Below are positions 12,446 to 45,375 of a stretch of 64,000 nucleotides of DNA, piece by piece. The notes under the pieces were generated by a model. That model did no database searches, was not told the origin of the DNA, and was given only the letters and a program-made list of their open reading frames with translations. The translations under genes were made by a program, and so were the position numbers. Each line of letters opens with the position of its first letter. The first letter of the stretch is position 1. This DNA is from an uncultured Candidatus Saccharibacteria bacterium (GTDB lineage: Bacteria > Patescibacteriota > Doudnabacteria > UBA920 > O2-02-FULL-48-8), in the NCBI GenBank assembly GCA_964605735.1, contig CAZSDS010000001.1, positions 6,771 to 70,770 of the forward strand, read 5' to 3'.

Positions 12446-12490
12446 AAAAACTGCACCGGATCATTAAGATCGGGTGCAGAGGTGTTTATT
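12444..12490. terminator. Bidirectional intrinsic terminator (CTGCACCGGAT...ATCGGGTGCAG)
   Basis: 11-bp stem with one mismatch. A-run upstream and T-rich downstream. Lies between convergent recX and the minus-strand membrane protein. Confidence 0.55.
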
Positions 12491-13295
12491 GTGAAGCTTT
12501 CACCTGCCCAGTTTTTTCAGGCTTTGGGCTTAGCTTCAGGAGCAGGTGCTCTCGTCGGCCGGCTGGCTCATGGGCAGTCAGCGTTGTTGCCAAATTTTGT
12601 ATAAGCGCCTCTCTGATTGCTTTTCCCTCCTTTGATTTTCCAAAACGGCTGGTGTTTTGAATGGCGTCGATCGCCCCCTCGATGATCAGGTACCTTCTCT
12701 CGGCGACATATCTCCAGTCCGTCTCTATCTCCTCTAACCGTTCTACGATGCTAGAATGCACAGCATGGTAGTCGATTTCGGTGAGGAATTTTATGGCTTG
12801 TTCAACTCTTAAGGTGACCTTGTCGCCGATGGTGTCTGTCAGTGTGATGGTGACGTGACCATAACCATCATCAATCCTGTAGTTTGTGATTCTTAGTCCT
12901 CCCGTCACTTTCAGATTAATCCGCGGTTTGGAGAACCATCCACCAAGCGGAATCGAAATCCCAGGTCCGCTTTTGTCTCCTTGCGAACTTATGTCAACCC
13001 ACAATTCGCCACGGTTCAAATTGAAATCGGCTTTCTTGCCGACCACGTTGCAATTCCAGTAGTCACTGAGCCAGTTCAACAAGTCTTTATCGAATAGCGA
13101 GCTCCAGATCAGCATGTTCAGCAGGATTGTTCCCGCCAGAATCCCGAATACTGAAATGTGTTCAGGATTGACCAGCAAAACTGCTCCAGAAAGGATGACA
13201 GGAACCGCGGTAAACATGATGAGGAGTTTGACTCCGCCCCGCGGGATCGGGAGATAGTGACTTGCGATGCCACAGTTCTTGTAATGGTAAACCAT
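12486..13295 (-). CDS. Hypothetical membrane protein (2 N-terminal TM helices plus soluble domain)
   Basis: 269-aa ORF. Hydrophobic helices (LLIMFTAVPVILSGAVLLV, VFGILAGTILLNMLIW) then a ~200-aa soluble domain. No motif recognised. Confidence 0.5.
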   Translation of the reverse strand: MVYHYKNCGIASHYLPIPRGGVKLLIMFTAVPVILSGAVLLVNPEHISVFGILAGTILLNMLIWSSLFDKDLLNWLSDYWNCNVVGKKADFNLNRGELWVDISSQGDKSGPGISIPLGGWFSKPRINLKVTGGLRITNYRIDDGYGHVTITLTDTIGDKVTLRVEQAIKFLTEIDYHAVHSSIVERLEEIETDWRYVAERRYLIIEGAIDAIQNTSRFGKSKEGKAIREALIQNLATTLTAHEPAGRREHLLLKLSPKPEKTGQVKASQ

Positions 13296-18808: not shown

Positions 18809-18854
18809 CCGAGGAGTGATAGAATTCTGGAAGCGAGGAAAACACGGAGGAACT

Positions 18855-19250
18855 ATGGACCCGATGACCGGCAAGATGATCAAGCAGGCCCTGTACAACG
18901 TTTGCCAGCGTTGGAGGTTCTATCAGAAAGATCTTGGTACAATCAAGGCGCCTGAATTTGTTTCGGATCGCATTGCGGAGACATATTTTGCTCTGCAGGC
19001 AATCGACCATCGGAGCGATTTTGCTCCGGCAATGGCTGTTTTCGCCAGCGAACTCGGGCTGACACAGTGCAATCTGCAGGACATGGGTTTCTGCGGCGAG
19101 GCGGAAGAAAGAGCCCGCGAAATGATTGCACGCGCAACGCGCATGAATGACTACGAGGGCATGATAGTGTTCATCAAAGAGATCTCCAGCGATCTCCTGG
19201 AGCGCTCAAACACAGGGAACATCGGCAATGCCGGCCACGCACAAGCGTGA
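18855..19250 (+). CDS. Hypothetical protein (GC-rich ORFan)
   Basis: 131 aa counted from the ATG at 18855, which has GGAGG 5 nt upstream. The long ORF frame opens at 18816. GC content is noticeably higher than neighbours. No motif recognised. Confidence 0.45.
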   Translation: MDPMTGKMIKQALYNVCQRWRFYQKDLGTIKAPEFVSDRIAETYFALQAIDHRSDFAPAMAVFASELGLTQCNLQDMGFCGEAEERAREMIARATRMNDYEGMIVFIKEISSDLLERSNTGNIGNAGHAQA

Positions 19251-20143: not shown

Positions 20144-20649
20144 CTGTAACTTTTCTGAATAATTCTTCGGTTACTCTTACTCTTCACTATTACTATAGGA
20201 CTGGTTAAGTCTTCCGTTTAATTTTGGACAATTTCATGCCAGCAAACCTGGAGTCTTTGCGCAAACCGTACCCGCTTTTTTTCATGCGGGGGCGTTTTTT
20301 TATTTCCCTTTTTTCGGCCTTTGTAATAAATTCTTTTTCTTTCTTCATAAAATTCGTTTAAGACGAAACAGCTACATGCTTGTTACAACTCTGATGTCCG
20401 GATTTTGCGCACCCAGACAGCGGCAGCAATCTAAATATCATCAACTTTCTTGGTTTACTATACTAAATCCAATTGCTGGGCAACAATGGTTTTTATGTAA
20501 CAATCACAAATTAATCGTACTTTGTTTTTGTTTCATATGCAAATTCTCTTTAAGGCCACCCAAAAGTTTATCCATAGGTTTATTGGCACCTGTGAATTCT
20601 GTCCAAATATGTTAAGCAATTAATCATATAAAACTAAACTTGTTGTACA

Positions 20650-22875
20650 GTGGTTATTGCTCAGCCGGACAGGTATTTTTTATTCATGTTAAGTATCATC
20701 ATTCCAACATACAATGAAAAAGATAACCTCTCTGAACTCGTCAAGAGAATTGTCCGGTCCCTTCAACAGAAAGGGTTGGAGTATGAAATGGTTTTTGTCG
20801 ACGACCATTCCACGGACGGAACTTACGAGTACCTGGAGGAGCTAAAGGAGATTCTGCCCCTACAATTAATCATCAAACAAGGACCGCGCGGAAAGGCGCA
20901 GTCTTTACTGCAGGGGTTCCAGCACGCGCAGGGAGACATTCTGGCTTTTATTGACGCGGATTTGCAGTATCCGCCTGAAGCCCTTCCTGAAATGTTGGAG
21001 AAACTGGATAAGGCGGATGTTGTCGTTGGGAATCGCAACTACGCCCCTGGCCAGGCGCTGAGGGGTTCATTAACCAAACTGTATAACTTAGCCATTGGCC
21101 GGGTTGTTTTGGGGCTGGACTGCGATGTTCAATCAGGCATGAAAATTTTCAAGCGCGAGGTTTTGCGCAGTCTTGAGTTAAGCCCAAGCAAATGGGGTTT
21201 TGATTACGAATTTCTGTTCAAGTCAAAGCGTCTTGGATGGAAAATTTCGCAAGTCGATATTGATTTTGCTGAGAGGGTGAATGGGGAAAGCAATGTGAAT
21301 GTTCTCAGGACTGGTTTTGAACTGGCTGGAGGAGCGTTAAGCCTTCGTGCAAAATACATGCTCATGACTGTGTTTAAATTTCTGGACCATCCGCACCAGA
21401 GCGAAAGGTTGGGGTACAACTATTCCAATGAATCAGATTTTCTCTTTCTTCCGGAAATCCACAGTGCCAAGAAGCACATTTACCCTGAAACAGTGACCTT
21501 CGTTTTTTTGTGTGCCTTGGCGCTCTCAGCTGTGATTTATGGGGCGCATGAATTGACTGGTTGGTCTGTGTTGGTTGTGGTATCAGGCATAATTTCCTTG
21601 TTTTATTTTGGGTTAATGGTGTTTAAGCTTTACACGGTTTATGTTTCCTTCCAAAAGAAGTTCTTAAGCGTATCGGATGCTGACGTTGCGTCTCTGGACG
21701 AGGAGGAGCTTCCTGTCTATACGGTCTTGATTCCTCTTTATAAGGAATCGGAAGTGGTTACGCAGATTAAACGAGCCATGATGTCCATTGATTATCCTTT
21801 AGACAAGCTGGATTTTGTGATCACGCTTGAGCACTATGACAAAGAAACCATTGAAGCTATCGACAATGCAGGGTTCCCGGTTCAGTTCAAGAAATGTATT
21901 TTGCCGGATGTCCAACCAAAGACAAAGCCAAAAGCACTGAATGTGGCTTTTCCTCAGACCAGAGGAGAGTTTCTGGTGATTTACGACGCTGAGATCATTC
22001 CTGACCATGACCAGTTGAAAAAGGCTTATATCACTTTCCGCGATAATCCGGATGTGGACGTCCTTCAAACCAGGCTGGACCACTATAATGCCGACCATAA
22101 CATGATAACCAAACTGTTCAATGCCGAGTTCGCCTTTCATTTTGACATGTTCCTGCCCGGCTTGATGCGCATGAATGCGCCGATTCCATTGTCCGGGCAC
22201 AGCACTCACTTCAGAAGAAAAGCGCTTGAAGACATTGGTGCCTGGGATCCATACAACGTGACAGAGGATTGTGATGTGGGTATCAGGATGGCCAGGCTGG
22301 GCAAGCGCGTGGAGATTTTGGATTCAATGAGCTATGAGGAAGCGACCACCACAGTGAAAACCTGGGTTGGCCAGCGAGCGCGCTGGATAAAGGGTTTCAT
22401 TCAGACAGCAATTGTTCATTTGCGGCACCCATTCAGGTTCATGCGTGAAATTGGCGGCGCCAAACAGTTTGGAATTTTTCTGCTGACGGTGCCAGCAAGC
22501 GTAGCGGTTAATCTGCTCAATTTGGTGTATTGGATTTTGCTGGTCGGCTGGATTTTTACAGAATCTGAATTCATCAAGGCTTTGTTCCCGGGACCGATCT
22601 TCTACGTTTCACTGGTCACATTTGTTGCTGGGAATTTTATATTCATTTACTTGAATTTGATCGGTGCTTACTTGCGGGGAAGATATGCCCTGGTTCCGTA
22701 CAGCCTGCTTTCGCCTTTGTACTGGATCATGCTTTCTTATGCCACAGTCAAAGCGTCTGTTGAACTAATCATTAAGCCTCACCATTGGGATAAAACCAAA
22801 CACGGCGCCCACCTGAAGAAGAAGGTCGAAGAGCCGGTTGTTGTCAAACGATATGCAATACCAACGAACACGTAA
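20650..22875 (+). CDS. Two-domain family-2 glycosyltransferase: N-terminal DPM1-like GT2 plus TM region plus cellulose/chitin-synthase-like processive GT2 (D, DxD-like, TED, QxxRW)
   Basis: 741 aa. N-terminal GT2 (IIIPTYNEKDNL...VDDHSTDGT...DADLQY). Second catalytic domain with VIYDAE, VTEDCDVGIR (TED) and QRARW (QxxRW). Multiple TM helices between and after the domains. No PilZ domain seen. Confidence 0.85.
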   Translation: MVIAQPDRYFLFMLSIIIPTYNEKDNLSELVKRIVRSLQQKGLEYEMVFVDDHSTDGTYEYLEELKEILPLQLIIKQGPRGKAQSLLQGFQHAQGDILAFIDADLQYPPEALPEMLEKLDKADVVVGNRNYAPGQALRGSLTKLYNLAIGRVVLGLDCDVQSGMKIFKREVLRSLELSPSKWGFDYEFLFKSKRLGWKISQVDIDFAERVNGESNVNVLRTGFELAGGALSLRAKYMLMTVFKFLDHPHQSERLGYNYSNESDFLFLPEIHSAKKHIYPETVTFVFLCALALSAVIYGAHELTGWSVLVVVSGIISLFYFGLMVFKLYTVYVSFQKKFLSVSDADVASLDEEELPVYTVLIPLYKESEVVTQIKRAMMSIDYPLDKLDFVITLEHYDKETIEAIDNAGFPVQFKKCILPDVQPKTKPKALNVAFPQTRGEFLVIYDAEIIPDHDQLKKAYITFRDNPDVDVLQTRLDHYNADHNMITKLFNAEFAFHFDMFLPGLMRMNAPIPLSGHSTHFRRKALEDIGAWDPYNVTEDCDVGIRMARLGKRVEILDSMSYEEATTTVKTWVGQRARWIKGFIQTAIVHLRHPFRFMREIGGAKQFGIFLLTVPASVAVNLLNLVYWILLVGWIFTESEFIKALFPGPIFYVSLVTFVAGNFIFIYLNLIGAYLRGRYALVPYSLLSPLYWIMLSYATVKASVELIIKPHHWDKTKHGAHLKKKVEEPVVVKRYAIPTNT

Positions 22876-24559
22876 AATATTTTCTTCACCTGAATTATGG
22901 CTTGGTTTTGCCGCTGCGATCGCTGGCATGGCCGGAGTCTGGTATATCTACTCTCTTGGTTTGGTGAAAGAATTGACTGACGCTTACGCCCATCTGAATT
23001 TTTCCAGAATGATGTTCGAAAGCCTGACCCCGGGGATAAGCCAGATCGGACTTTGGCCGCCGTTGCTCCATATGCTCATGGCTCCGTTTACCATGATTCG
23101 TCCTTTGTATGAATCTGGGCTTGCCGGAGCTGTGGTGCTGATTCCGTTTTACATCCTGGGGACAGTTTACACTTACAAACTGGTGAAATTGTTTACTCAG
23201 AATGAATGGCTGTCTGTTTTGGGCGCGGTGCTGTTCATGGCAAACCCTTACGTCATTTACTACTCCGCAGTCCCAATGATGGAAGTGCTGTTCCTGGCCA
23301 ATTTGATGGCGGTTGCGTATTATATGGCCCGATGGTACATGCTGGGGAATCTTTCCAGTCTGGTGCTGACAGGCGTGTTCGCAGCCTTGGCCGCATTGTC
23401 TCGGTTTGAGGGGCTCATACTGGCGCCACTGGTGGGAATTTTGTTGGCAATTGATTTGCTTAGGCGAAGGAAAGGGCTCGCCCAAACGCAAGCAGTGCTG
23501 ATTTTGTTTTTGCTGTTGGCAGCGCTTGGTCCTCTGGTTATTTTGGCCTATAGCTGGTATTTTGGCGGATCGCCGATGGCGTTTACAGGCGGGGATTGGG
23601 TAAAGTCTGCAGCTGCTGATGAAGGATTTTTGACCCAGGGCAGTTATTGGCAGTCTCTGCGGTACAGTTTGTATGCGGCCTTTTATATGGTTGGTCAGAA
23701 TTTGATCATTTTTGCGCTGGCCACTTTGCCGCTGTTATTTTTATTCAGAAAAAGGTTTGAAGTTATGAGCGTTCTGCTTGTCCTGGCCAGTCCGGCAATT
23801 TTCATCATTATTGCTTTGGCCAGCGGGAGTTATAACATTGGAGTGCCTGACTTGCCGCCGCATACCGTGTTTCTGAACGAGAGATATGGTCTAAGCTGGA
23901 TAGGTTTTGTGATTGTTTCGCCTTTGTTGTTGATGGGGACCGTACTTAGTCTGGCGGTCCGCAGGAAATATTTATACCGATTGGCGCTGGCAGCTGTGAT
24001 ATTGGGCGCTTCCGCGATGTTGTATTCTGCGGGAGATTTCCTCTACGCGGCAACTGCCAAAAACAAGTTTTTTGCTGTCCGGAACAACATTAACTCTCCG
24101 CGTGCGTTTCATATTGGCGCGGGTGAGTTTTTGAACTCTGAATATGATTTTGGGAAGATTTTGATAACGCGGGCAGACAATGACCCAGTGCTTGCCACAT
24201 CCCAGATCCCTTTAAGCAATTACATTTACGAAGCGAATTATTTGTATTTCGACCAGGCAGTGGAAGAGCCTTGGATATTCGCGCGCTGGGTTGTGATGAA
24301 CAGGGAAGATCCCGGCGAAAGACTTGCATCACAATGGGCGGAGAATGAGCAGTTTGCCAGCTTTTATGAATTGGCTTATGAGAATATTGGGCGTGCAGTT
24401 TACAAAGTCAAGGATGATGCGGTCAGGTCTTACGCGATTGAACACCAGCTTGATGCCGGAAGGATACCTTCCATTAACTCCGGCATCGCCAAATGGGATC
24501 CCTCCAACGTGTATGACCAACTGCAGATTGAGAGTGGGATTACTGTAAAAAAAAACTGA
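22838..24559 (+). CDS. Polytopic membrane protein, putative GT-C-fold glycosyltransferase (ArnT/PMT/YfhO-like)
   Basis: 573-aa ORF overlapping the upstream gene by 38 nt, so the start is uncertain. About 9-11 TM helices with a DAYAH-containing first loop. ~200-aa C-terminal soluble domain. Confidence 0.55.
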   Translation: MLSNDMQYQRTRKIFSSPELWLGFAAAIAGMAGVWYIYSLGLVKELTDAYAHLNFSRMMFESLTPGISQIGLWPPLLHMLMAPFTMIRPLYESGLAGAVVLIPFYILGTVYTYKLVKLFTQNEWLSVLGAVLFMANPYVIYYSAVPMMEVLFLANLMAVAYYMARWYMLGNLSSLVLTGVFAALAALSRFEGLILAPLVGILLAIDLLRRRKGLAQTQAVLILFLLLAALGPLVILAYSWYFGGSPMAFTGGDWVKSAAADEGFLTQGSYWQSLRYSLYAAFYMVGQNLIIFALATLPLLFLFRKRFEVMSVLLVLASPAIFIIIALASGSYNIGVPDLPPHTVFLNERYGLSWIGFVIVSPLLLMGTVLSLAVRRKYLYRLALAAVILGASAMLYSAGDFLYAATAKNKFFAVRNNINSPRAFHIGAGEFLNSEYDFGKILITRADNDPVLATSQIPLSNYIYEANYLYFDQAVEEPWIFARWVVMNREDPGERLASQWAENEQFASFYELAYENIGRAVYKVKDDAVRSYAIEHQLDAGRIPSINSGIAKWDPSNVYDQLQIESGITVKKN

Positions 24560-24585
24560 ACAGGCGGAATGTTGTTGAGGCAAAT

Positions 24586-25731
24586 GTGTTTCCCGGCATA
24601 TCAGACCTTTTTAGGGAAAAACAGGTGGAGTGCGCCGCCAGTGATCCTAAAGATGTAACGATAGAAGAACAATCTTTAGATAAGAATAATCTCAAACAGA
24701 TGGTTAGGGATTATTACTATTCATGTCTTAAGCCCTACTACAGATACGGTGTTGCGGACCTGGGAGGGAGGGGGAACTCAGAAGCGCAAAGTTATGGCTT
24801 GCTCCAGTCGCTTTGGATGGATGATAAGAGGACTTTTCGTGACGTGTGGCTTTGGACCAAGGAAAATCTTCAGCGCCAGGAAGATTATCTTTTTTCCTGG
24901 GACTTCGACCTTAAGCATGATTTAAGAACTTTCCCAGCGAAAAAAGCAGTTATCAAAGATTATAATTCCGCATCTGACGCTGATGAGGATATTGCCATGG
25001 CCTTATTTTTGGCTGGTGAAGCATGGGAAAAACCAGGGTACATTACCGAGGCCAAGAAAATAATTGCGGGAATATGGAGAAGAGAAGTTTATGAGCACCA
25101 GGGTTTGCTTTATCTTCTTCCCGGCGCGTGGGGCGCTGAGAACAACCAAATTGTGGTGAACCCCTCATATTTTTCCCCGGCCGCGTATAAAATTTTTGCA
25201 AAATATGATCCGAACCATGATTGGAATAAACTTGCCAGTGATTCGTATGCAGTGTTGGAGCGGATCAGGGGAGGGATTAACAGAGGCGAGTTCAATGACT
25301 TTCCGCCGAACTGGGTTGTGATCGACAAAAACTCCGGAAGAATGACTCCGTTTACGGGCAAGGCGGACAGCTTAGACTATTCCTATGACGCATTCCGCAC
25401 TCTTTGGCGATCCGCTTATGACCAGCTGACTGTGCCTAGCCTTGAATCTTGGGATTACATCTCTTCGTTGGAAAGCGAGATACGTCGGGATTGGGAGGAT
25501 GATCAACTGCTTTGCACCTTGTATAACTTTGACGGAAGGATGTTGCTTTGCAATCCTGCGCCAACTGGACTTTCAGGGCTAATCGGAGTTTTGTCCGTAT
25601 CAAATGGTTTTCTGGCGGAGCAGGTTGTGAAGCGGAATTATTTGCTGGGCGGAAAACTGCAGTTTCCGGAGGACAATTTTTACGGCCAGAGCTGGCACTG
25701 GTTTGGAGTGTATTTGTTTACCCGTTCCTAA
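24586..25731 (+). CDS. Glycoside hydrolase family 8 (endo-beta-1,4-glucanase, BcsZ-like)
   Basis: 381 aa. ASDADEDIAMALFLAGEAW matches the GH8 active-site signature (A-[ST]-D-[AG]-D-x2-[IM]-A-x-[SA]...[FW]) as I recall it. No obvious signal peptide. Confidence 0.7.
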   Translation: MFPGISDLFREKQVECAASDPKDVTIEEQSLDKNNLKQMVRDYYYSCLKPYYRYGVADLGGRGNSEAQSYGLLQSLWMDDKRTFRDVWLWTKENLQRQEDYLFSWDFDLKHDLRTFPAKKAVIKDYNSASDADEDIAMALFLAGEAWEKPGYITEAKKIIAGIWRREVYEHQGLLYLLPGAWGAENNQIVVNPSYFSPAAYKIFAKYDPNHDWNKLASDSYAVLERIRGGINRGEFNDFPPNWVVIDKNSGRMTPFTGKADSLDYSYDAFRTLWRSAYDQLTVPSLESWDYISSLESEIRRDWEDDQLLCTLYNFDGRMLLCNPAPTGLSGLIGVLSVSNGFLAEQVVKRNYLLGGKLQFPEDNFYGQSWHWFGVYLFTRS

Positions 25732-25774
25732 GAAAAAACTCCCCAAGAAGGGGAGTTGTTCAGGGAGTTATTTT

Positions 25775-27739
25775 TTACCATCCCGCGTTTTTGGCAAGGT
25801 TATAGGCATACTCTGGCCAGAAAGTTCCGGCGCTCGGGCCGCCGTTGCAGCTGCCGTCTGATTCGCCTGGAGCTTTAATCCAAAGGTAAGCATCTACAGA
25901 TCCGTTGCCGGTGTTGGTGGTTGGGGTTTGTCCAAGCGCGCGACCCTGCGGGTTGCACCACTGGTAGTCCGGAGCAGGTCCGCGGCCGTTTCGCGAAGTA
26001 TCGATCACGAATTTCTTGCCGCCAACCTTGCCTGAAACCTGTTGTCCATAATTGATATTGTCCTGGGTTGAAACAAAGTTGGAAGTGTTGAGCGCAAAAC
26101 CGTTTGCAGAATCAACGCCCGCTTTTCTCAGTCTGGACGCCATTTCGTCAGGGTTGACCCAGCCGGAATGCCCGGCGTCTATGTATACTGCCGTATTCGG
26201 ATTTTTTCTGAGAATGTGGACCGCATCTCTGAGAGTATTCATGCGGACTTCTTTGTCGTGTCCGGACAAACAATCCATCAGGGACAGCGCATCCGGTTCC
26301 AAAACTACCAGGGCTTTGGCATTGCCGATTCCTGCACCAATTGCCCCGATCCAGGATTTGTACGCTTCCGGACTGCCGACTCCACCGGCTGAGTAGCTTC
26401 CGCAGTCTCGTTGTGGAATATTGTAAGCTACGAACACAACGGTTTTTCCGTTTGCCGAGTTTACTGCTTTGCGGACATCCTCATAGACGTTGCCGTTCCA
26501 TCCGCCAAGCCACTGGGCAATAGGCTGTTGCGCCAATTTTTCTATGGCTTGTGCTTGCCAGTGACCCCGGTTGTTGTTGACCCAGTTCTGTGCCTGGCTG
26601 TGCGGATTGACGTAAAAGTCAGCGTTGCCTAATGGGTTTCCGGTCAAGTTAACGACAGGCTCATTAACAGGCGGTGTTGGAGCAGGTTGTGGTTGTTGGG
26701 GAGCTGGTGTTGGCTGGTTCTGTTGGCTATTGGATTCTGGCCGCACTAAAGTCTTGCTCATTGCCGGAGATGACCAGTGCAGGGAAGCGGTTGCTTCGCC
26801 CCAGCGTTCATAATATTCCATTTTAACTGGATAGGATTTTCCAGCTTCCAAGTAAATGTGTCCTGTGTTTTCAGTGGCTGGATGGTCGCTCCAGTTGTCT
26901 ATAATCAACTGGTTGTTTACCCAGACGCGCACGCCGTCATCTGAAAGACTGTGGAAAGTGTAGTGGGTGCTTTGGGCAGGTTTGATGTTTCCTGTCCATC
27001 GTGCGGAAAAGTTGTCACGGGGAATATTTGAATCTGGTGTGCCTGCTTTCCAGTCAAAATTGATGACCGGTTCTGTTTTTGTAACTTTCAGGCCGTTGAA
27101 GTCTATCCTGTCAAAGTATTCCGCAGAAAATCCGGAACCATTGGCGTTGTCAGTTGGAAGACCTGTGCCTGTTTGTGAGATTGGATACAGCTGGTTGCGG
27201 GGAATTATTTCTTTGTGCTGTCTGTTGCTGGACCAGGACAATTGCATTATTGCTCTTCCTGTGTTTTCGTAATACTCAAGTTTGATTGGATATTTTTGTC
27301 CCGCGTTCAGGTGGATGTACCCGATATTTTCTGTTCGGGGGTGATCTGTCCAGTTGTCGATTATCAGTCTGCCATCCACCCACAGACGCACGCCGTCGTC
27401 AGAATAAGTATAGAAGTTATAGGTATCAGAGTGGCGGGGCACCACTGATCCTTCCCAACGCGCGGAATACGTTTCATTGTGCATGCTTGGGTCAGGGGAG
27501 TTGTAATCCCAGTCAAAATTCACTTGCTCGTCAATTCGGGTGATTGACTGGCCGGTAAAATTTTGATTGTCATAATAAGTGGCTGTTAAGCCGGTGCCAG
27601 TGGAGGCAACAGCCTGTGGGTAGCCCCACTGGGTAATGGTAGTCATGCCGAGCATAAGAGCCAGGGCAACTGCAGTAAGTTTGCGAATTTCTGATGGGTT
27701 TGTTTTTTGGTTTAAACTTGTGGTCTGTGTTGAGGCCAT
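25775..27739 (-). CDS. Secreted glycoside hydrolase family 6 (cellulase) with two N-terminal PA14 domains
   Basis: 654 aa. Signal peptide. Two PA14-like modules (GLTATYYDNQNF...SARWEG; GFSAEYFDRIDF...SARWTG). Pro/Gln-rich linker. GH6-like signatures (YNIPQRDCGSYSAGG; VVLEPDALS). Confidence 0.7.
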   Translation of the reverse strand: MASTQTTSLNQKTNPSEIRKLTAVALALMLGMTTITQWGYPQAVASTGTGLTATYYDNQNFTGQSITRIDEQVNFDWDYNSPDPSMHNETYSARWEGSVVPRHSDTYNFYTYSDDGVRLWVDGRLIIDNWTDHPRTENIGYIHLNAGQKYPIKLEYYENTGRAIMQLSWSSNRQHKEIIPRNQLYPISQTGTGLPTDNANGSGFSAEYFDRIDFNGLKVTKTEPVINFDWKAGTPDSNIPRDNFSARWTGNIKPAQSTHYTFHSLSDDGVRVWVNNQLIIDNWSDHPATENTGHIYLEAGKSYPVKMEYYERWGEATASLHWSSPAMSKTLVRPESNSQQNQPTPAPQQPQPAPTPPVNEPVVNLTGNPLGNADFYVNPHSQAQNWVNNNRGHWQAQAIEKLAQQPIAQWLGGWNGNVYEDVRKAVNSANGKTVVFVAYNIPQRDCGSYSAGGVGSPEAYKSWIGAIGAGIGNAKALVVLEPDALSLMDCLSGHDKEVRMNTLRDAVHILRKNPNTAVYIDAGHSGWVNPDEMASRLRKAGVDSANGFALNTSNFVSTQDNINYGQQVSGKVGGKKFVIDTSRNGRGPAPDYQWCNPQGRALGQTPTTNTGNGSVDAYLWIKAPGESDGSCNGGPSAGTFWPEYAYNLAKNAGW

Positions 27740-28019: not shown

Positions 28020-28048
28020 TTGACAAACCAGAAGAAATAGTGTATACT
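28020..28048 (+). promoter_or_regulatory. Near-consensus sigma70-type promoter TTGACA-17-TATACT
   Basis: TTGACA at 28020-28025, 17-nt spacer, TATACT at 28043-28048. About 80 nt upstream of the ATG at 28129. Confidence 0.6.
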
Positions 28049-28128
28049 GCTTTGTTCTTTTAAGTTGCTTCAAAATTTGTTCGGAGGATGTGTTTTACTT
28101 TCGCTAAGGCGATTTTTCACGGGAGGAA

Positions 28129-28728
28129 ATGATGAAGAAGTTGATGTACAGCTGGATCGCTTTGGCGATCATCGCGGCCACAACCGTGGCTTGCGGCAAG
28201 AGCAGCAGTCCCACGGCGCCGGCAACAACAGAGGCGCAGGCGGCAGAAAAGTTCGAGATCTATGTCTGGCGTACAGACTCGAACCAGGTTCTGGTTGAGG
28301 CTCGCTGCAACGCTCTGATTGCGATCAAGAAAGAGGATCGCGCCCGCATGTCGCCGGACGACACTCCGGAATCGCTCATCATCCGTGAGTGGAGCAGGGC
28401 GATCGGCGACCCTGATCCGAGAACGGCATTCAAGGACTGGTATACTCAGTACGGCAACGGCAACACCGGACATTTGGACTGGCCAGTAACTGTATGGGGG
28501 CCAATCACCGTCAAGGGCGACCGGTTCGAATTCCAGTTCTTGATGGACACGTTCAAGTTGCCAGCGAGCGATCTGCTGGAATTCGACAACGAACAGTTCC
28601 AGGACCGGTTTAATGTGTATCCGACTAACGCGGCACACATTTCTCGGGCTTCGGCTTTCCCCTTGATTCGCGTGGTCGCCGGCTCGGTTTCGGCCTTGCC
28701 AACGACACGTCCCGAACGGACTCAGTAG
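28129..28728 (+). CDS. Hypothetical lipoprotein (GC-rich ORFan)
   Basis: 199 aa. Signal peptide with lipobox-like TTVAC. Strong RBS GGGAGGAA. Markedly GC-rich codon usage versus flanks. Own promoter and a terminator (GGCGGTTGCGGAACA...TGTTCCGCAACCGCC plus T-run) at 28750-28800. Confidence 0.5.
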   Translation: MMKKLMYSWIALAIIAATTVACGKSSSPTAPATTEAQAAEKFEIYVWRTDSNQVLVEARCNALIAIKKEDRARMSPDDTPESLIIREWSRAIGDPDPRTAFKDWYTQYGNGNTGHLDWPVTVWGPITVKGDRFEFQFLMDTFKLPASDLLEFDNEQFQDRFNVYPTNAAHISRASAFPLIRVVAGSVSALPTTRPERTQ

Positions 28729-28817
28729 AACACCAACGCACGAAGAGGCGGTTGCGGACATTTGCATTAGCATTTGTTCCGCAACCGCCCTTATTTTTTA
28801 AGTACCGTTTCGCGGAA

Positions 28818-33900: not shown

Positions 33901-34399
33901 CGAAAATATCTATGTACTTATCAACCACTTTCTGCGCTTCCTCTTCTGATTTGGTCATCACTGCGCGCGCGATCTCTCCGCGCATGCATCCGGACAAGCA
34001 AATAATTCCTTCCGCATGTTCCTTCAGTGCCTGCAAATCGATCCTTGGCTTGTAGTAGTAGCCCACAGTATGCGCCAGAGTCGTCAGTTTCATCAAATTT
34101 TTGTAGCCGGCATCGTTGCTGGCCAGCAACGTCAGATGGAAATAGTTGGCATCCTGTTTGCCTTCTTTGTCTTCCATGCGGCGTGGGGAAATATATGCCT
34201 CAACTCCGATGATCGGCTTAACCTCGTTTTCCCGGCAAAGATTGTAAAATTCAATCGTCCCATACATTACTCCGTGGTCGGTGATGGCCAAACTGGACAT
34301 ACCCAGCTCCTTGGCGCGCTCAACAAGTTCCTCAGTCTTGGACAGGCCATCCAGCAGGGAGAAATGGGAATGTAGATGTAGGTGGGTAAATGGCTTCAT
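30956..34399 (-). CDS. dnaE: DNA polymerase III alpha subunit
   Basis: About 1147 aa from the likely start MKPFTHLHLHSHFSLLDG (PHP domain). The ORF frame opens further upstream at 34477. Polymerase core, HhH and OB-fold regions present. Confidence 0.9.
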   Translation of the reverse strand: MKPFTHLHLHSHFSLLDGLSKTEELVERAKELGMSSLAITDHGVMYGTIEFYNLCRENEVKPIIGVEAYISPRRMEDKEGKQDANYFHLTLLASNDAGYKNLMKLTTLAHTVGYYYKPRIDLQALKEHAEGIICLSGCMRGEIARAVMTKSEEEAQKVVDKYIDIFGRENLYIEIQRNARVRDDHEEKLITRLVEVARKNGLKLVATADCHYLRPEDSEAQDVLVCIGTGKTTSDSDRLDMRAYDLSLKSADEMYERFADYPDAVAESAKIAERCNLEILTNQRYFPKVEVPEGKTPAQYLRELTYERALLKYGQTGEIPENVRQRIDYELGIIEMKGFDTYFLMVADIVEGAHALGAITNTRGSAAGSIVGYVLGITNVDPLEFAIPFERFLTAHRPTPPDIDLDIADNRRDEAIEYITNKYGKEKVAQIITFGTMQARAAVRDVGRALGVAYAKCDQIAKMIPMGKQGFHMTLDKAMNLNNELKEVYEKDPETRKIIDIAKKLEGGARHASIHAAGIIITPTELTDYMPLQLEPDGNRVITQYDMYALDVNANNNAIGVIKMDLLGIRNLSILEAAVRIAEARHNVKIDIYNLPHPDPKTFKLLSEGHTFGVFQLGSSGMTRYLMELKPSTIFDIMAMIALYRPGPMQFIPEYISRKHKPSLIKYFDPAFEKILERTYGILVYQDDLLTIAHDLAGYSWEEVDKFRKAVGKKIPEEMAKQKAKFIKGCMDTSGWSEEKATNIWSWIEPFAAYGFNKGHSASYCVVSYQTAYMKANYTVEFMAAVLTAESGNMDTVVEAIEECRVLGIEILPPDVNESRSGFTVIDEKHIRFGLNAIKNLGSDVIDRIIAIRKEGGKFKNMEDFLTRIKTRNFNKKSWESLVKSGAMDSLGERGALLGNSEIILEFARNQFKLSEEKQHSLFGEAQLPQAKLKLHEVEPATKRDKVNWEKELLGLFVTAHPMDDVQEHINKVARPIKLASQSKTQNELTIGGVVTRIQKIMTKKGDPMWFVDVEDKTGVIEVLIFPKVLQQFGQLIESDRILLITGKVSDKDGVPKFLAEKVEEFNMAMIPQPAKPARTGSNGTPTVTIKIPGNVSQDIFVELKKLFEQYPGNLDVNLVINEQKIKTPFKISMNEELKGKIKALIS

Positions 34400-34533
34400 G
34401 TGGATTACATTATCGCAAAAAATTCCTGAACAATCCAATTTGCCGGCAAACCCCCGAAATTTCAGGCGAACAGGCAAAAGATGGTATAATAAATGGGCAA
34501 ATTAAAACTGTTTTTGGCCGGACAAACACAAAA

Positions 34534-35358
34534 ATGAATTTTGAAGAGAACGATAGGGCAGAAGAATGGTTTCTGATCATAGGGGATTGGTTCAGATCAA
34601 CCCACAGGCGCTGGTTTTATGCGCTTTTGCTGGTCATTGCCATGGCTATACCTCTGCAGATTTTCCTGAAATACAGTTTCCGCCAGGTTTTTGTTTCGAG
34701 CATCTCGGAATTGAGGGTAAACTATGAGCCGGTCACCAAACTGCCTTTGGAGGTTGTTGAAACGAAAGTATTTGATCTGGGCAACGGGACCTACTCCGGC
34801 TATGCTCGGGTGAAAAACAACAACAGTGATTGGGGAGTGCCTGAGCAGAAATACATTTTTGCGTTTCTGGCCGGATCAGGAGAACAAGTTATGGCCTCAA
34901 GCGGTGCAACTTTTATTCTTCCGTTTTCGGAAAAAATCATTGCCTTCCCTCGATTCCAGTCTGACAAAGCGCCGAACAGGATCAACTTTACTCTTCAGCA
35001 ATCAGAGTTTATCCGCCCTCCGCAGTTGCCCGTTGTGAATTTTGAAATCCAGCGCAGATCTCTAAGCTCAGAAGTCAACCAGACGATAGTCTCTGCGGTG
35101 ATAGTCAACCGTTCTCCGTTTAGGATTACCCGGGTGGACTTGCCAGTCCTTTTGTTTGATAATCAGAACCGGATCATAGGAGTAAATTACACGAACATAA
35201 ATGACCTGACCTCCAACGAATCCCGCTCCTTCCAATACACGTGGTTTAACCGCATTAACAATGTCTCACGCATTGAAATCATTCCGGAATTGAATCCTTA
35301 CAACCGGGATATTTTCGGCGCTGTGCCGGGACAAAACCCTTTCGACGACCTTGAATAA
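34534..35358 (+). CDS. Hypothetical membrane-anchored protein with two tandem ~100-aa extracytoplasmic domains, translationally coupled to the SEDS gene
   Basis: About 274 aa from the ATG at 34534. The ORF frame opens at 34390. Single N-terminal TM (WFYALLLVIAMAIPLQIFL). Ends 8 nt inside the ftsW/rodA start. Confidence 0.5.
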   Translation: MNFEENDRAEEWFLIIGDWFRSTHRRWFYALLLVIAMAIPLQIFLKYSFRQVFVSSISELRVNYEPVTKLPLEVVETKVFDLGNGTYSGYARVKNNNSDWGVPEQKYIFAFLAGSGEQVMASSGATFILPFSEKIIAFPRFQSDKAPNRINFTLQQSEFIRPPQLPVVNFEIQRRSLSSEVNQTIVSAVIVNRSPFRITRVDLPVLLFDNQNRIIGVNYTNINDLTSNESRSFQYTWFNRINNVSRIEIIPELNPYNRDIFGAVPGQNPFDDLE

Positions 35359-42462: not shown

Positions 42463-45375
42463 ATGAAAATGATAAAAAGGAAAACTATTTCGAGAAAATT
42501 TGCCGATGCCGCGTATGTTGCGGTCGGGGTTTGCCTGATTGCGGCCACTGCCATGTTGCCAATTTTCTCTACTTGGGTTTTAGCCATAGAGGATGAGCCT
42601 GTTTTGGAAAATGCCGCACAGTGTGAATCAACAACTCTGCCTGAAGAAACTGGTGTTGAGGTTGAACCTGATTCTGCTGTCGAAACCCCTGAAGTGGAAG
42701 ATCCTGAGGTCGAAACTCTCGAAACCGAAGCTGTTGAAACAGAAATAAAAGATGAAACGCAGGAGGATGAAACACAGGAAAAGACTGTAGAAGAAAAGGC
42801 AGAATCCCTGCCTGAGGTTAATGAGCCTTCACGGGAAGAAATTGCAGGTGAGGACAACGCAGAACAAGAATTTTCTGAAGGAAATGAATCTAAACCAGCG
42901 CTTGAAGATGAAGGTGATAAGGAAACGGAGGAATTGGACGGGGAAATGGAAAATGAAACTTTTGATTCTGAAACTGTTGCTGAAGAGGAAGGTATTGCGG
43001 TAAAAGAGGAAAGCATTACCGAAATAGAAAATTCAAATACGGTTGATATCTGCAATGATGTTGATTCCGTCGGCAATACGGGAGGCAATGAAATTGAGTC
43101 TGAGGAAACGGCCAGTGATACGGAGATAGAAACAGGGGATGTGAACGTTTACGCCAACGTTTTGAATATAGTAAACACAAACAACATCAATTCAGAAATT
43201 GTTCAGATCACGGAAAACTTCAACAATCTTTCAGCTGATATTTTAATGAACCAGCCGGAGACCACGCCCACCCAAATGAGCCATGATTTGGTTGCGGGGC
43301 TTTGCCAGAACATACACTGCCAGTCGTTAACCACCTTTAAGCTGACCAACAGCAACAATGCAACGGTAAACAATGACATAGACCTGGCTGGGAATTCTGG
43401 CGGCAATTCCATTTCCGGCGCCGGAGAAAATAGCGCTATTCGCACCGGAACTGTAAACGCGTTGGTCAACATCATCAATATCGTCAATAACAATGTCATA
43501 AATTCCCGCTGGACCATTGCGACTTTTAATATTTTCGGCGATTGGGAAGGGGACCTGGTTCTTCCTTCCGAGCTTTATTTTGACCAATACACAACTGTAG
43601 GGGCGGACACAGGCGTAACTGAGCACAACATGAACAAGATAGTTTTGAATGTGAACAATAATAATCAAGCCGCCATCAGCAACAACGTCAACGCGAACGC
43701 AAACAGCGGCGGGAACACTGCCAAAGGCGCAATATTGCAAGATGCTTCAACTGAGACCGGGGATTCGGAAAGCTTAACTAATGTTAAAAATATGGCAAAT
43801 GTATCCCTGGTCAACAGCAGTTGGTTTTTGAATATCGTCAACACTTTGGGAAGCTGGACCGGAAACGTTTATTCTTTGCCGGAAAATATGGATTTTGAGC
43901 AAACTCCTTTAGGTATGACTTTTTTCTCCGCATCAGGGGCGGATGAAAATGCTTTGCAGGAATTCCACGATGCGGTTGGGGGGCTGGCACAAGGGGATGA
44001 AGTGACAATCGAAATAGAAAACAACAACAAGGCGGTGATTAACAACAACGTGGATGTGCAGGCCAATTCCGGCGGAAATGAAATTGATGGCGGTGATCTG
44101 CAGAACACCAGGATCATCACTGGCTACAGCCGCGCCCTGGCCAATATCCTCAATTTTGCAAACATTAATCTGATAAATTCCAACCTCAACGTGGGACTGA
44201 CGAATATTTTCGGGTCGTGGAATGGGAATATTGTTTTTGGTTACCCTGATTTGGCGGTGAACCAGAGTTTGTTGCAGGGAGCCGTGCCTGTCTCCAGCGG
44301 TTCGCGCGTCAATTACGAGTTGCAGTACAGCAACAACTCCGGTTCAACAATGTCCAACGCAGTCATGGCGTGGACATTTGATCCGCAGGTTTATAGTTTT
44401 AGCCACGCTAACATCAAAGGCTTGTTTCCTGTTTCTGACGGAGTTTTGGAGGTGAAGATAGGAAAGCTTGTTCCGATGGCCTCTGGTCGCGTGCAAGTGC
44501 AGTTGAACACCAAAGTTGGTTTGGAGCAAGGGTTTGAGGTCGAAACTGTTTCGGAAATCAGCGGAGGTGGGCCGGAAAAAAATCTTGATAACAACACTCA
44601 CGTTCTCACAGCCCTCGCCTCAGCTTCATATAATGAGGTGCCTGAACTGCCAAACCCTAACGTTACACCCGGTGCCCCTTTTGCGGCTGCGCCGCCGGTA
44701 ACCAGGATGTCGGCGATTTCCAGCGCGCTGTTTACCAAAGTCACCAAAGTTAATGATTCCGCCGGGCGTGAATTGAAAGCAGGTGATTCGGTAAAGTTTA
44801 CAATTACAATCGAAAACCAAAATACCGAAAAAATTTACAGCGCTGTCATGAAAGACCAGATGGTGGGGCCTGACGGGAATACAGTTTCGTTTGATGAGCA
44901 GGAACTTGGCGAGCTTTTGCCGAATGAAAACATTATTTTTGAATATTCGCTGGAGATAACGCAAGAAGTTATGGATGGAACGTACACCAACTATTTTTGG
45001 ATTGAGGGATTGGATAACATGCTGAGGCAGACCAAAACTTTGACCGCGTCCAGCGCCTTTGCCGTCAAACAGGATCCGGTTATGGTGATTAATGAAACCG
45101 AGCAATTGCCGCAGGTGACAATTGTTCCGGACAGACAAACGATCACCCGCGTGGTTAACCCGGCAGTCACGGGTGGGGAGTTACATTTGCCGCCTTTGGT
45201 TTTAGGCTCTGTTATTGACCAGACTCAAGCAGATGACGGTTTCAATGAACCGCAAATTCCTGGTTCGAACGAGCTAATGCAGTTGATTGTCACGCTGGTG
45301 CTGGTTGTAGGGTCTGCAGCGGGGTACGCGATTTACAAGTCAATGCATCGAACAAATAATTTAGGAAGTGGTTAA
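42463..45375 (+). CDS. Large cell-surface protein: signal anchor, acidic Glu-rich region, four ~45-aa N-x-(V/I)-D-x-x-(A/G)-N-(S/T)-G-G-N ... A-N-(I/V)-(L/I)-N repeats, DUF11/CARDB-like beta domains, C-terminal TM anchor
   Basis: 970 aa. Repeats at NDVDSVGNTGGNEIESEE..., NNDIDLAGNSGGNSISGAG..., NNVNANANSGGNTAKGA..., NNVDVQANSGGNEIDGG.... C-terminal hydrophobic helix LVLVVGSAAGYAIY followed by basic residues. Confidence 0.7.
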   Translation: MKMIKRKTISRKFADAAYVAVGVCLIAATAMLPIFSTWVLAIEDEPVLENAAQCESTTLPEETGVEVEPDSAVETPEVEDPEVETLETEAVETEIKDETQEDETQEKTVEEKAESLPEVNEPSREEIAGEDNAEQEFSEGNESKPALEDEGDKETEELDGEMENETFDSETVAEEEGIAVKEESITEIENSNTVDICNDVDSVGNTGGNEIESEETASDTEIETGDVNVYANVLNIVNTNNINSEIVQITENFNNLSADILMNQPETTPTQMSHDLVAGLCQNIHCQSLTTFKLTNSNNATVNNDIDLAGNSGGNSISGAGENSAIRTGTVNALVNIINIVNNNVINSRWTIATFNIFGDWEGDLVLPSELYFDQYTTVGADTGVTEHNMNKIVLNVNNNNQAAISNNVNANANSGGNTAKGAILQDASTETGDSESLTNVKNMANVSLVNSSWFLNIVNTLGSWTGNVYSLPENMDFEQTPLGMTFFSASGADENALQEFHDAVGGLAQGDEVTIEIENNNKAVINNNVDVQANSGGNEIDGGDLQNTRIITGYSRALANILNFANINLINSNLNVGLTNIFGSWNGNIVFGYPDLAVNQSLLQGAVPVSSGSRVNYELQYSNNSGSTMSNAVMAWTFDPQVYSFSHANIKGLFPVSDGVLEVKIGKLVPMASGRVQVQLNTKVGLEQGFEVETVSEISGGGPEKNLDNNTHVLTALASASYNEVPELPNPNVTPGAPFAAAPPVTRMSAISSALFTKVTKVNDSAGRELKAGDSVKFTITIENQNTEKIYSAVMKDQMVGPDGNTVSFDEQELGELLPNENIIFEYSLEITQEVMDGTYTNYFWIEGLDNMLRQTKTLTASSAFAVKQDPVMVINETEQLPQVTIVPDRQTITRVVNPAVTGGELHLPPLVLGSVIDQTQADDGFNEPQIPGSNELMQLIVTLVLVVGSAAGYAIYKSMHRTNNLGSG

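Follow-up and report, generated by a model that had tools for sequence, protein, structure and literature searches.

Bacterial cellulose synthase (Bcs) systems are built around a processive family 2 glycosyltransferase (GT2) that carries D, DxD, TED and QxxRW motifs and its own transmembrane channel, with a GH8 endoglucanase encoded just downstream (PMC8892547). Here we describe a four-gene locus that shares these features, at positions 20650-27739 of a 64-kb stretch of the 797-kb contig CAZSDS010000001.1 (the window) from a Candidate Phyla Radiation bacterium (CPR, also called Patescibacteria). The locus encodes a dual GT2 protein, a polytopic membrane glycosyltransferase of the GT-C fold, a GH8 endoglucanase and, on the opposite strand, a secreted enzyme in which two PA14 modules precede a GH6 catalytic domain. 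Judged by its sequence, the locus operates in the manner of a cellulose synthase system yet falls outside the Bcs family, lacking PilZ and BcsB and scoring below the equivalog cut-offs. It differs from Bcs in having no PilZ, BcsB, BcsC or cyclic di-GMP (c-di-GMP) module, about six transmembrane helices rather than eight, an extra N-terminal polyprenyl-phosphate glycosyltransferase (PP-GT) domain, and a GT-C protein in the place of BcsB. We propose that its GH8 enzyme is tethered to GT-C, whereas that of Bcs is a soluble periplasmic enzyme.

Bcs is the nearest described system for the GH8 side of the locus; for the GH6 side, the nearest is the CslA-GlxA-CslZ cluster of Streptomyces (with LpmP). 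Both hosts are monoderm, both loci contain a cellulose-synthase-like GT2 without BcsB, and in both a membrane-associated GH6 enzyme is transcribed opposite to the synthase (PMC9040799, PMC11022532). The GH6 domain of this locus belongs, like CslZ, to the short endoglucanase type. However, CslZ is a lipoprotein without binding modules, whereas the present enzyme carries a PA14 dyad. The locus has neither the GlxA copper oxidase nor a lytic polysaccharide monooxygenase, and the Streptomyces cluster has no GT-C, GH8 or PP-GT domain.

The nearest match for the PP-GT/GT-C pair is found among three-component glycosylation systems (GtrA/GtrB/GtrC, CsbB/YfhO and GacI/GacL), which likewise combine a GT2-type PP-GT with an extracytoplasmic polytopic GT-C (PMC11127046, PMC9574508). 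One distant relative of the GT-C protein fuses GtrA, PP-GT and GT-C in a single chain, as described below. The cited systems decorate polymers assembled on a lipid carrier, whereas in this locus PP-GT is fused to a processive synthase, no flippase gene is present, and the GT-C protein is tied to a synthase-type GT2 and appears to carry a glucanase. The clostridial Ccs system, a Gram-positive-type cellulose system with a cognate endoglucanase at the membrane (PMC8892547), offers in CcsZ the nearest case of a membrane-tethered cognate glucanase. CcsZ differs in being a GH5 enzyme with its own tether, and Ccs keeps a BcsB homolog and acetyltransferases and involves neither GT-C nor recoding.

Our interpretation, to which we assign a probability of about 0.55, is that the locus encodes a BcsB- and PilZ-independent machine for the synthesis, decoration and trimming of a cellulose-like β-1,4-glucan in a monoderm CPR bacterium. 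It is very probable that the module serves to make and process a glycan. Its features are as follows.

20686-22875 (+): dual GT2 protein, from its likely start (Pfam, PDB sequence matches, AlphaFold2 model, fold search, motifs)
20686-21369 (+): its N-terminal, putative PP-GT domain, of the DPMS/GtrB/ArnC type (PF00535, residues 15-174)
21475-22875 (+): its C-terminal processive, membrane-embedded synthase, with about six predicted transmembrane helices (PF13641, PF13632 and PF13506, residues 357-632)
22853-24559 (+): polytopic membrane glycosyltransferase of the GT-C fold, from its likely start (AlphaFold2 model, Foldseek against the PDB, homolog alignment)
24547-24555 (+): run of nine A (A9), in GTA AAA AAA AAC TGA at the end of the GT-C open reading frame (ORF); proposed slippery site
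24556-25731 (+): linker followed by the GH8 endoglucanase domain, both read in frame -1 with respect to GT-C (Pfam, PDB matches, frame analysis)
25775-27739 (-): secreted PA14-PA14-GH6 protein (Pfam, PDB sequence matches)
about 27739-27602 (-): N-terminal signal or anchor of the PA14-GH6 protein
27595-26738 (-): PA14 dyad (Pfam, 224.6 bits)
26641-25778 (-): GH6 catalytic domain (Pfam, 217.3 bits)
25737-25757 (no strand assigned): palindromic terminator-like hairpin in the 43-nucleotide (nt) gap between the convergent GH8 and GH6 genes (consensus scan, a pattern match only)

An earlier note on this DNA, made from the letters alone, had called four ORFs with these domains. The ORF list, Pfam and, for GT-C, a fold search recovered every one of them in place: a DPM1-like GT2 followed by a processive GT2 with D, DxD, TED and QRARW, a GT-C-like protein overlapping its end, a GH8 enzyme, and a convergent secreted PA14-PA14-GH6 protein. 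Its call that this is not a canonical bcs operon was borne out as well, since Pfam found no PilZ or BcsB and both the CelA and the BcsZ equivalog scores lie far under their cut-offs.

The GT2 ORF (20650-22875, +; 741 amino acids, aa) is open from GTG 20650. Translation likely begins at ATG 20686, giving 729 aa, because homologs align from M13. Located on the protein, the motifs are D51D52, D102xD104, YD446AE, T538E539D540 and Q575RARW579. By sequence, the N-terminal domain matched Pyrococcus DPMS (5mlz, 9e-33) and then ArnC and GtrB (1e-20 to 1e-17) in the PDB; it keeps DADLQxPPE, and D102xD104 together with Q106 matches the DPMS motif. The fold of the N half also matched DPMS, ArnC and GtrB (TMt 0.56-0.61). 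A putative PP-GT activity for this domain is thus supported by homology and by the model.

The C-terminal domain matched the sequence of BcsA (1.5e-12). In the AlphaFold2 model (mean predicted local distance difference test score, pLDDT, 84) the PP-GT domain is followed by a linker and then by the transmembrane helices of the synthase, of which two precede the second GT-A domain and about four follow. The C half superposed on BcsA and on the Chlorella-virus and Xenopus hyaluronan synthases over approximately 450 columns (448 for RsBcsA, 4p00), the outcome of the structural comparison that the earlier note had proposed for the 741-aa protein. Together with the TED and QRxRW motifs, invariant in 25 homologs, these matches assign the second GT2 domain to the processive enzymes, as the note had supposed, rather than to a non-processive family. 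The protein ends about 30 residues past the last transmembrane helix, and Pfam found no PilZ domain there. In this tail lies a conserved motif, PHHWxKTxHG (residues 710-719; 22777-22806), in which P710, W713, K715, T716 and H718 are invariant and which also occurs in a distant triple fusion (P0382, below). Its pattern, [FW]x[VK]Tx[KH], may resemble the gating loop of BcsA, FxVTxK, although this part of the model has low confidence.

The GT-C ORF (22838-24559, +; 573 aa) likely starts at ATG 22853 (P0121; P-labels denote GT-C proteins and L-labels related loci), which gives 568 aa and an overlap of 23 nt with the GT2 ORF. Sequence comparison with the PDB gave no match for this protein even at E ≤ 1, and the Pfam model PMT_2 scored 23.2 bits against a gathering threshold of 26.1; two relatives pass that threshold (P0129, 31.9; P0163, 26.3). 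Its assignment comes from structure. The AlphaFold2 model (pLDDT 91.8) was searched against the PDB with Foldseek, and all 22 matches with E ≤ 0.001 were GT-C enzymes, headed by STT3, ALG12, DPY19, ArnT, ALG9, AftB and PglB at a TM-score of about 0.5. Asp48 and His52, in the first extracytoplasmic loop, are invariant in 33 homologs. Beyond the membrane part the protein continues as a soluble C-terminal domain of about 160 aa, and the ORF ends in VKKN-stop on the A9 run. In two homologs a LysM domain takes the place of GH8 at the C-terminus. These LysM fusions, the existence of related GH8 enzymes with signal peptides, and the GT-C fold class together would place the C-terminus of GT-C, and with it GH8, outside the cell.

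We compared related loci to assess the conservation of this arrangement. A scan of one genome per species gave at least 505 stretches with a GT2 relative (dual or C-domain only), and 80 were kept. Many of the records are labeled CPR (Saccharibacteria, Peribacteria, Doudnabacteria, Paceibacterota, Ryanbacteria, Woesebacteria and others), and the closest relatives of the window are CPR/Patescibacteria metagenome-assembled genomes (MAGs); a few labels name unrelated phyla, and the labeling of MAGs is of uncertain value. The GT2 proteins fall into two clades, the window clade, with a C-domain at least 50% identical to that of the window (32 loci), and a paralog clade at about 40% identity. GT-C lies directly downstream of GT2 in 30/30 loci of the window clade and in 7/43 of the paralog clade. 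GH8 directly follows GT-C in 16/27 and 0/39, and GH6 is present in 14/32 and 0/47, respectively. Sixteen more loci were fetched through GT-C by a metagenome scan with an alignment query (a single GT-C query had yielded no confirmed relatives), and a processive GT2 stands immediately upstream wherever the sequence allows this to be seen. From these synteny counts the invariant core is the processive GT2 with GT-C, and the glucanases are frequent accessories. The genes therefore travel together as the earlier note had expected of a unit, and the synteny adds to its account that the strictly conserved element is the synthase/GT-C pair.

The paralog clade (L029, L031-L035, L037-L075 and others) is found across CPR and has the same dual GT2 architecture without adjacent GH8 or GH6. 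Many of its loci have a weak GT-C homolog (25-31% identity) 5-12 kb downstream.

Gene fusions tie the same activities together. In 14 of the 19 cases in which GT-C and GH8 are neighbors, the two share a single ORF, and approximately 25 of 63 GT-C homologs are proteins of 900-966 aa with a C-terminal GH8. Among more distant GT-C relatives (27-31% identity), the following Rosetta-stone fusions were found.

P0382 (1471 aa): PP-GT, processive GT2 and GT-C
P0380 and P0435: processive GT2 and GT-C
P0386: GtrA, PP-GT and GT-C
P0420: PP-GT and GT-C
P0401: PP-GT, GT-C and a GH5 cellulase
P0378: GT-C and another glycoside-hydrolase core

In P0401 a non-homologous β-1,4-glucanase thus occupies the position of GH8. 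The single-chain fusions support the view that PP-GT, synthase, GT-C and an outward-facing glycanase are one functional unit. The fusions suggest, in addition, that the logic of a GT-C with a glycanase may extend beyond CPR. The sequences of P0401, P0386 and P0382 are rich in Arg and Ala and do not look like those of CPR.

The GH8 ORF (24586-25731, +; 381 aa) scored 130.5 bits with Pfam (cut-off 24). Its signature, ASDADEDIA, fits the pattern A[ST]D[AG]D..[IM]A. Residues needed for catalysis are in place: the acid E66, which aligns with the catalytic Glu of SEG/SEGM, D131/D133, and D268 at the position of the base, which aligns with D278 of CelA. The best PDB matches were CMCax (1wzz), CelA (1cem) and BcsZ (3qxf), and the BcsZ equivalog NF008305 scored 107.6 bits (cut-off 299). 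CMCax is the endoglucanase that serves cellulose synthesis in the bcs system of K. xylinus.

The GH6 ORF (25775-27739, -) encodes 654 aa, with a Pro/Thr/Gln-rich linker between the PA14 dyad and the catalytic domain. The two PA14 modules are 46% identical to one another, and the dyad matched that of RsgI3 (6qe7, 1e-76). All four conserved Asp residues of GH6 are kept (D445, D483, D521 and D628). The closest solved relatives, M. tuberculosis CelA1 (Rv0062; 1up0, 9.5e-77 over the whole catalytic domain) and T. fusca Cel6A (4.9e-62), are endoglucanases of about 290 aa rather than cellobiohydrolases, and the domain has the length of the short-loop endo type. Homologs of the domain in CPR are 50-60% identical, and the homology search pointed to no particular origin of the GH6. 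CelA1 differs from the present enzyme in lacking the PA14 dyad. We know of no cognate synthase gene next to CelA1. The mycobacterial matrix has been described as cellulose-rich (PMC8892547).

Family membership, PDB matches and catalytic residues thus identify both hydrolases as true GH8 and GH6 enzymes, not unrelated folds, and none of the five catalytic domains of the locus has lost its catalytic residues. GH8 and GH6 are inverting β-1,4-glucanase families. A β-1,4-glucan backbone is indicated by the match of GH6 to CelA1, by those of GH8 to CMCax, CelA and BcsZ, and by the GH5 "Cellulase" match of P0401. We accordingly favor, with some reserve, a β-1,4-glucan as the polymer, an identification taken from the hydrolase families.

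The same architecture could also serve another polymer, either a β-glycan of N-acetylglucosamine (GlcNAc) or glucosamine (resembling poly-N-acetylglucosamine (PNAG), chitin or chitosan) or a mixed-linkage or branched β-glucan, with hydrolases tuned to it. The synthase half scored only 72.2 and 61.8 bits with the CelA equivalogs of NCBIfam (TIGR03030, cut-off 699; NF008558, cut-off 992), and its best model was PgaC/IcaA (TIGR03937), with near full-length profile coverage and 116.8 bits against a cut-off of 422. Some homologs are named "XagB" or "PNAG synthase-like" by their sources, the LysM domain found on some GT-C homologs is a GlcNAc-glycan-binding module, and GH8 includes chitosanases. Against this, the GH6 domain is nearest to the proven cellulases CelA1 and Cel6A, the best GH8 matches are endoglucanases working with or on cellulose, and it is a GH5 "Cellulase" that replaces GH8 in P0401. 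Moreover, Pfam found no PgaB/IcaB-type deacetylase domain in the locus, and anchoring to peptidoglycan would explain LysM equally well. We consider a polymer of this other kind unlikely.

The junction between GT-C and GH8 has an unusual structure. The GH8 frame is -1 relative to GT-C and is open from 24532 to 25731, across the A9 run; the GTG at 24586 is therefore probably not the real start of GH8. No signal peptide or hydrophobic segment was detected in the 381-aa ORF, whereas in two related loci (L002 and L018) a separate GH8 has its own N-terminal hydrophobic signal peptide. Runs of A or T are evidently selected against from a length of nine nt in a large proportion of bacterial genomes (PMC1088944). 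The run at the GT-C/GH8 junction is the sole A9 or T9 in the 64-kb window, where dinucleotide shuffles lead to an expectation of 11.8 ± 4.8.

The same structure recurs in relatives whose GT-C proteins are 45-63% identical to that of the window. Exactly A9, with a stop within two codons, the -1 offset and an open -1 frame, was found in L001 (9419-9427), L006 (3866-3874), L080 (7713-7721), L081 (3973-3981) and L082 (1792-1800). When the six junctions were aligned over 150 nt, no block other than A9 was invariant, and column identity averaged 52%. Each related locus, too, has A9 as its single run of at least nine, and across the 1.46 Mb of fetched loci 7 of the 22 such runs lie at a GT-C/GH8 junction. 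Eight distinct GT-C proteins end in KK[NK]. In L001, L080, L081 and L082 the first in-frame ATG, GTG or TTG comes 48-144 nt past the GT-C stop, and the linker encoded in the -1 frame after the run is conserved among the A9 taxa and aligns with the linkers of natural fusions, upstream of any start codon. When one A was added to the run, the conceptual mRNA encoded an ORF of 959 aa that aligned with natural fusions in a single end-to-end high-scoring segment pair (42% identity to P0131; query 42-959, subject 43-966). In a neighbor-joining tree of GT-C proteins the A9 type forms one clade, with a nested member of the signal-peptide type, and L006 stands in a separate clade. A sequencing error at the run was rejected, as six taxa assembled independently of one another share this length, and so does a Logan assembly 100% identical over 7,090 bp.

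Slippage on A runs is known from dnaX of T. thermophilus, where the site is also an A9 (PMC1088944), and from tssM of C. rodentium and Y. pseudotuberculosis. In C. rodentium tssM1, an A11 run just before the stop codon yields two isoforms, both of which are required (PMC4256274). Like these cases, the locus combines an A run that coincides with or adjoins a membrane protein's stop codon with the missing C-terminal domain in another frame and a site conserved across species, so that two isoforms are expected. It differs in gene family, in that recoding is deduced here from the genes, and in that relatives use a plain fusion or a separately secreted enzyme. The exact A9, the open -1 frame, the lack of a signal peptide and the lack of a start codon in four of the five relatives lead us to regard recoding at A9 as likely, and the best explanation of the junction, on genomic grounds, is programmed slippage that would produce a GT-C-GH8 fusion beside free GT-C.

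Alternatively, A9 may not be a recoding signal. GH8 might be translated alone from GTG 24586, or the run might be a decaying or tolerated frameshift or a phase-variation switch at the DNA level, in which case GH8 would stay in the cytoplasm, lack function or be turned on and off. A GAGG that the relatives do not have stands 5 nt upstream of GTG 24586 in the window, which makes separate initiation conceivable, and the GH8 of the window may thus also be made on its own as a signal-less cytoplasmic protein. Gene callers annotate GH8 separately, and homopolymers are hypermutable (PMC1088944, discussion). Stimulatory RNA structure 3' of A9 was not evident either: z-scores against shuffles ranged from +0.99 to -2.08 for the six sequences, with no common hairpin. 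An upstream Shine-Dalgarno-like stimulator was, by our reading of the frame analysis, not conserved among the A9 junctions. The GAGG, the separate annotation, the hypermutability and the lack of RNA structure speak for this alternative. They must be set against an exact A9 in six taxa whose surroundings have diverged to about half identity, in genomes otherwise purged of A9/T9 runs, and against the fact that none of the eight KK[NK]-ending proteins shows a fused, A10-like state. They leave unexplained, too, why peptide sequence is conserved upstream of the first possible start codon, why four relatives have no in-frame start close to the run, and why GH8 here has no signal peptide when its orthologs are fused to an outward-facing end or have a signal peptide of their own. 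We therefore judge this alternative rather improbable and retain programmed slippage. The missing RNA structure fits slippage by RNA polymerase and removes one support for ribosomal frameshifting; recoding is more likely transcriptional than ribosomal, and a -1 slip on A AAA AAA would give the same protein. In public assemblies, gene callers give a truncated GH8 at the A9 junction, and the P0122 contig even has its GH8 divided between two calls of 113 and 227 aa.

The following mechanism would account for the locus. In a first step, modeled on BcsA and hyaluronan synthase and backed by homology and fold, the C-terminal half of the GT2 protein would polymerize sugar from a nucleotide donor and thread the chain through its own transmembrane channel, without PilZ or BcsB. 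In a second, the N-terminal half, to judge its class by homology and fusions, would make a polyprenyl-phosphate sugar, which after flipping would be used by GT-C as the donor at the outer face. The DPM1-like domain and GT-C would then form a pair of donor maker and donor user, a relationship that the earlier note had not drawn. The acceptor would likely be the emerging polymer, as in three-component extracytoplasmic glycosylation. We tentatively suggest that GT-C decorates the polymer, and favor side branches over ligation of a lipid-primed chain or glycosylation of proteins.

In a third step, comparative genomics suggests that GH8 would be tethered to the outward C-terminus of GT-C. In most relatives the two are joined by plain gene fusion, a point that, with the conserved A9 link in the window, goes beyond the earlier note. 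In the window, slippage of RNA polymerase from A9 to A10, or a -1 ribosomal slip, would give the 959-aa GT-C-GH8 protein. Standard decoding would also yield free GT-C, so two isoforms would be expected, in a ratio set by slippage. In a fourth step, the PA14-PA14-GH6 enzyme may bind carbohydrate and cut the same polymer further out, with a role in release, remodeling or passage through the wall like that of Streptomyces CslZ.

Two other accounts accept most of the domain assignments and divide the labor differently. In the first, the hydrolases would not be partners of the synthase: an epibiont would use these cellulases for nutrition or to attack its host, their clustering would mean no more than co-regulation, and the PP-GT/GT-C pair would O-glycosylate secreted proteins, for example the Pro/Thr-rich linker of the PA14-GH6 enzyme, much as GT39 enzymes of the PMT type glycosylate cellulases elsewhere among bacteria. 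GT-C is indeed PMT_2-like and the linker is rich in Pro, Thr and Gln. Glycosylation of Caldicellulosiruptor bescii cellulases is reported to need a GT39 enzyme (PMC6151902), and the PA14 dyad resembles environmental polysaccharide sensors (PMC6852018). However, GT-C follows the processive synthase without exception in the window clade, whereas GH6 is present in fewer than half of those loci; P0380, P0382 and P0435 join processive GT2 and GT-C in single polypeptides; and covalent fusion of GH8 to GT-C would be odd for a foraging enzyme. We regard this account as improbable.

Least probable, in our estimate, is lipid-primed synthesis with en bloc transfer, in which the N-terminal domain would make a polyprenyl-phosphate-sugar primer, the processive domain would extend and export it, and GT-C would ligate the chain to the wall or to protein, with the tethered GH8 setting chain length or clipping the primer: PP-GT and processive GT2 share one chain, all three activities are fused in P0382, and the top structural neighbors of GT-C include the en bloc transferases STT3 and PglB, but about half of the window-clade synthases lack PP-GT yet keep GT-C, P0386 is laid out as a classic three-component system for single sugars, the donors of STT3 and PglB are diphosphate-linked rather than monophosphate-linked, and the rank of these two enzymes says little of function because they dominate the solved GT-C structures.

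The synthesis, decoration and trimming of a cellulose-like glucan remains the interpretation we prefer. Several findings weigh against it. Only about half of the related loci have GH8 and GH6, which are hence accessory. PP-GT is fused in 24 of 46 window-clade synthases and missing in the remainder; near synthases without it a separate PP-GT gene was mostly not found, with 5 of 15 showing a weak match (26-29% identity), and the locus itself contains no flippase gene. The outward orientation of the GT-C C-terminus is deduced from fold class, LysM fusions and a transmembrane count made by hand rather than from coordinates. The synthase sequence does not set the sugar, since PgaC/IcaA leads CelA and both are far below their cut-offs. 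GH8 is, in addition, a family that holds xylanases and licheninases along with the chitosanases. On balance the results support the earlier note where it read the locus as either an unusual exopolysaccharide system or a make-and-trim β-glucan surface pathway: the second GT2 domain proved processive, the hydrolases belong to the families named, and the genes are co-conserved in relatives.

The surroundings of the locus in the window are housekeeping genes (GatCAB, MiaA, ThrRS, DnaE, RecG, ClpB and FtsW). All flanking genes scanned were of this kind or without a Pfam match, and no PilZ or BcsB was among them. MiaA, GatB and ThrRS were rejected as module members, their synteny being confined to the closest relatives. 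Two other ORFs, of 199 aa (28129-28728) and 144 aa (18816-19250), were left out because they have no homolog in any related locus. The 199-aa ORF (+), between GH6 and thrS, has a lipoprotein-like N-terminus (…AATTVAC|GKSS) and no Pfam match; an antisense ORF (28117-28773, -) overlaps it, and immediately 5' of it, at 28020-28048, stands the region's strongest sigma-70-like match (11/12).

Between miaA and the GT2 gene lies an AT-rich intergenic stretch of about 500 nt (20144-20649), long for a 0.8-Mb genome. An Rfam scan of the window found only tRNAs, and no riboswitch, for c-di-GMP or otherwise, in this stretch 5' of GT2. A consensus scan marked a T-rich terminator-like hairpin within it, at 20273-20294. 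In L099 a 47-aa minus-strand ORF was called inside the equivalent region. Elsewhere in the window, a small secreted protein with a T4SS_pilin match (PF18895; 16803-17267, +) is encoded between gatA and gatB, and the same place is kept in L080, L099 and the P0122 contig, an odd conserved insertion into the gatCAB cluster. A 970-aa ORF (42463-45375, +) has no Pfam match at E ≤ 1e-5, and neither do the ORFs at 34390-35358 (322 aa, just 5' of ftsW/rodA) and 12486-13295 (269 aa).

The locus thus belongs with synthase-dependent β-glucan secretion systems that have a cognate glucanase, and among them its GT-C partner and its conserved candidate for A9 recoding stand out. The literature that we searched, with incomplete coverage, describes neither a processive GT2 obligately paired with GT-C nor a GT-C-GH8 fusion. 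Searches on CPR/Patescibacteria with cellulose synthase or endoglucanase, likewise incomplete in coverage, returned nothing describing this module, and no report of programmed recoding in CPR appeared in the literature searched.

CPR bacteria account for a large part of bacterial diversity and spend their lives attached to host cells, and their surface glycans are essentially uncharacterized. A compact, conserved four-gene module offers a defined target for a CPR surface polymer. Programmed recoding has a clean candidate in the A9 junction, and annotations of truncated, start-less and signal-less GH8 proteins may be systematically wrong. The pairing of synthase and GT-C could shed light on the branching or anchoring of synthase-dependent polymers in monoderms. 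It is possible, although we hold this tentatively and would not yet rely on it, that CPR have a cellulose-like glycan machine of their own, in which GT-C replaces BcsB and is fed by a fused PP-GT, and to which one lineage adds GH8 by slippage on A9. If so, slippage at A9 would set the ratio of GT-C to GT-C-GH8, and the system would be a candidate for the surface polymer by which these epibionts attach.

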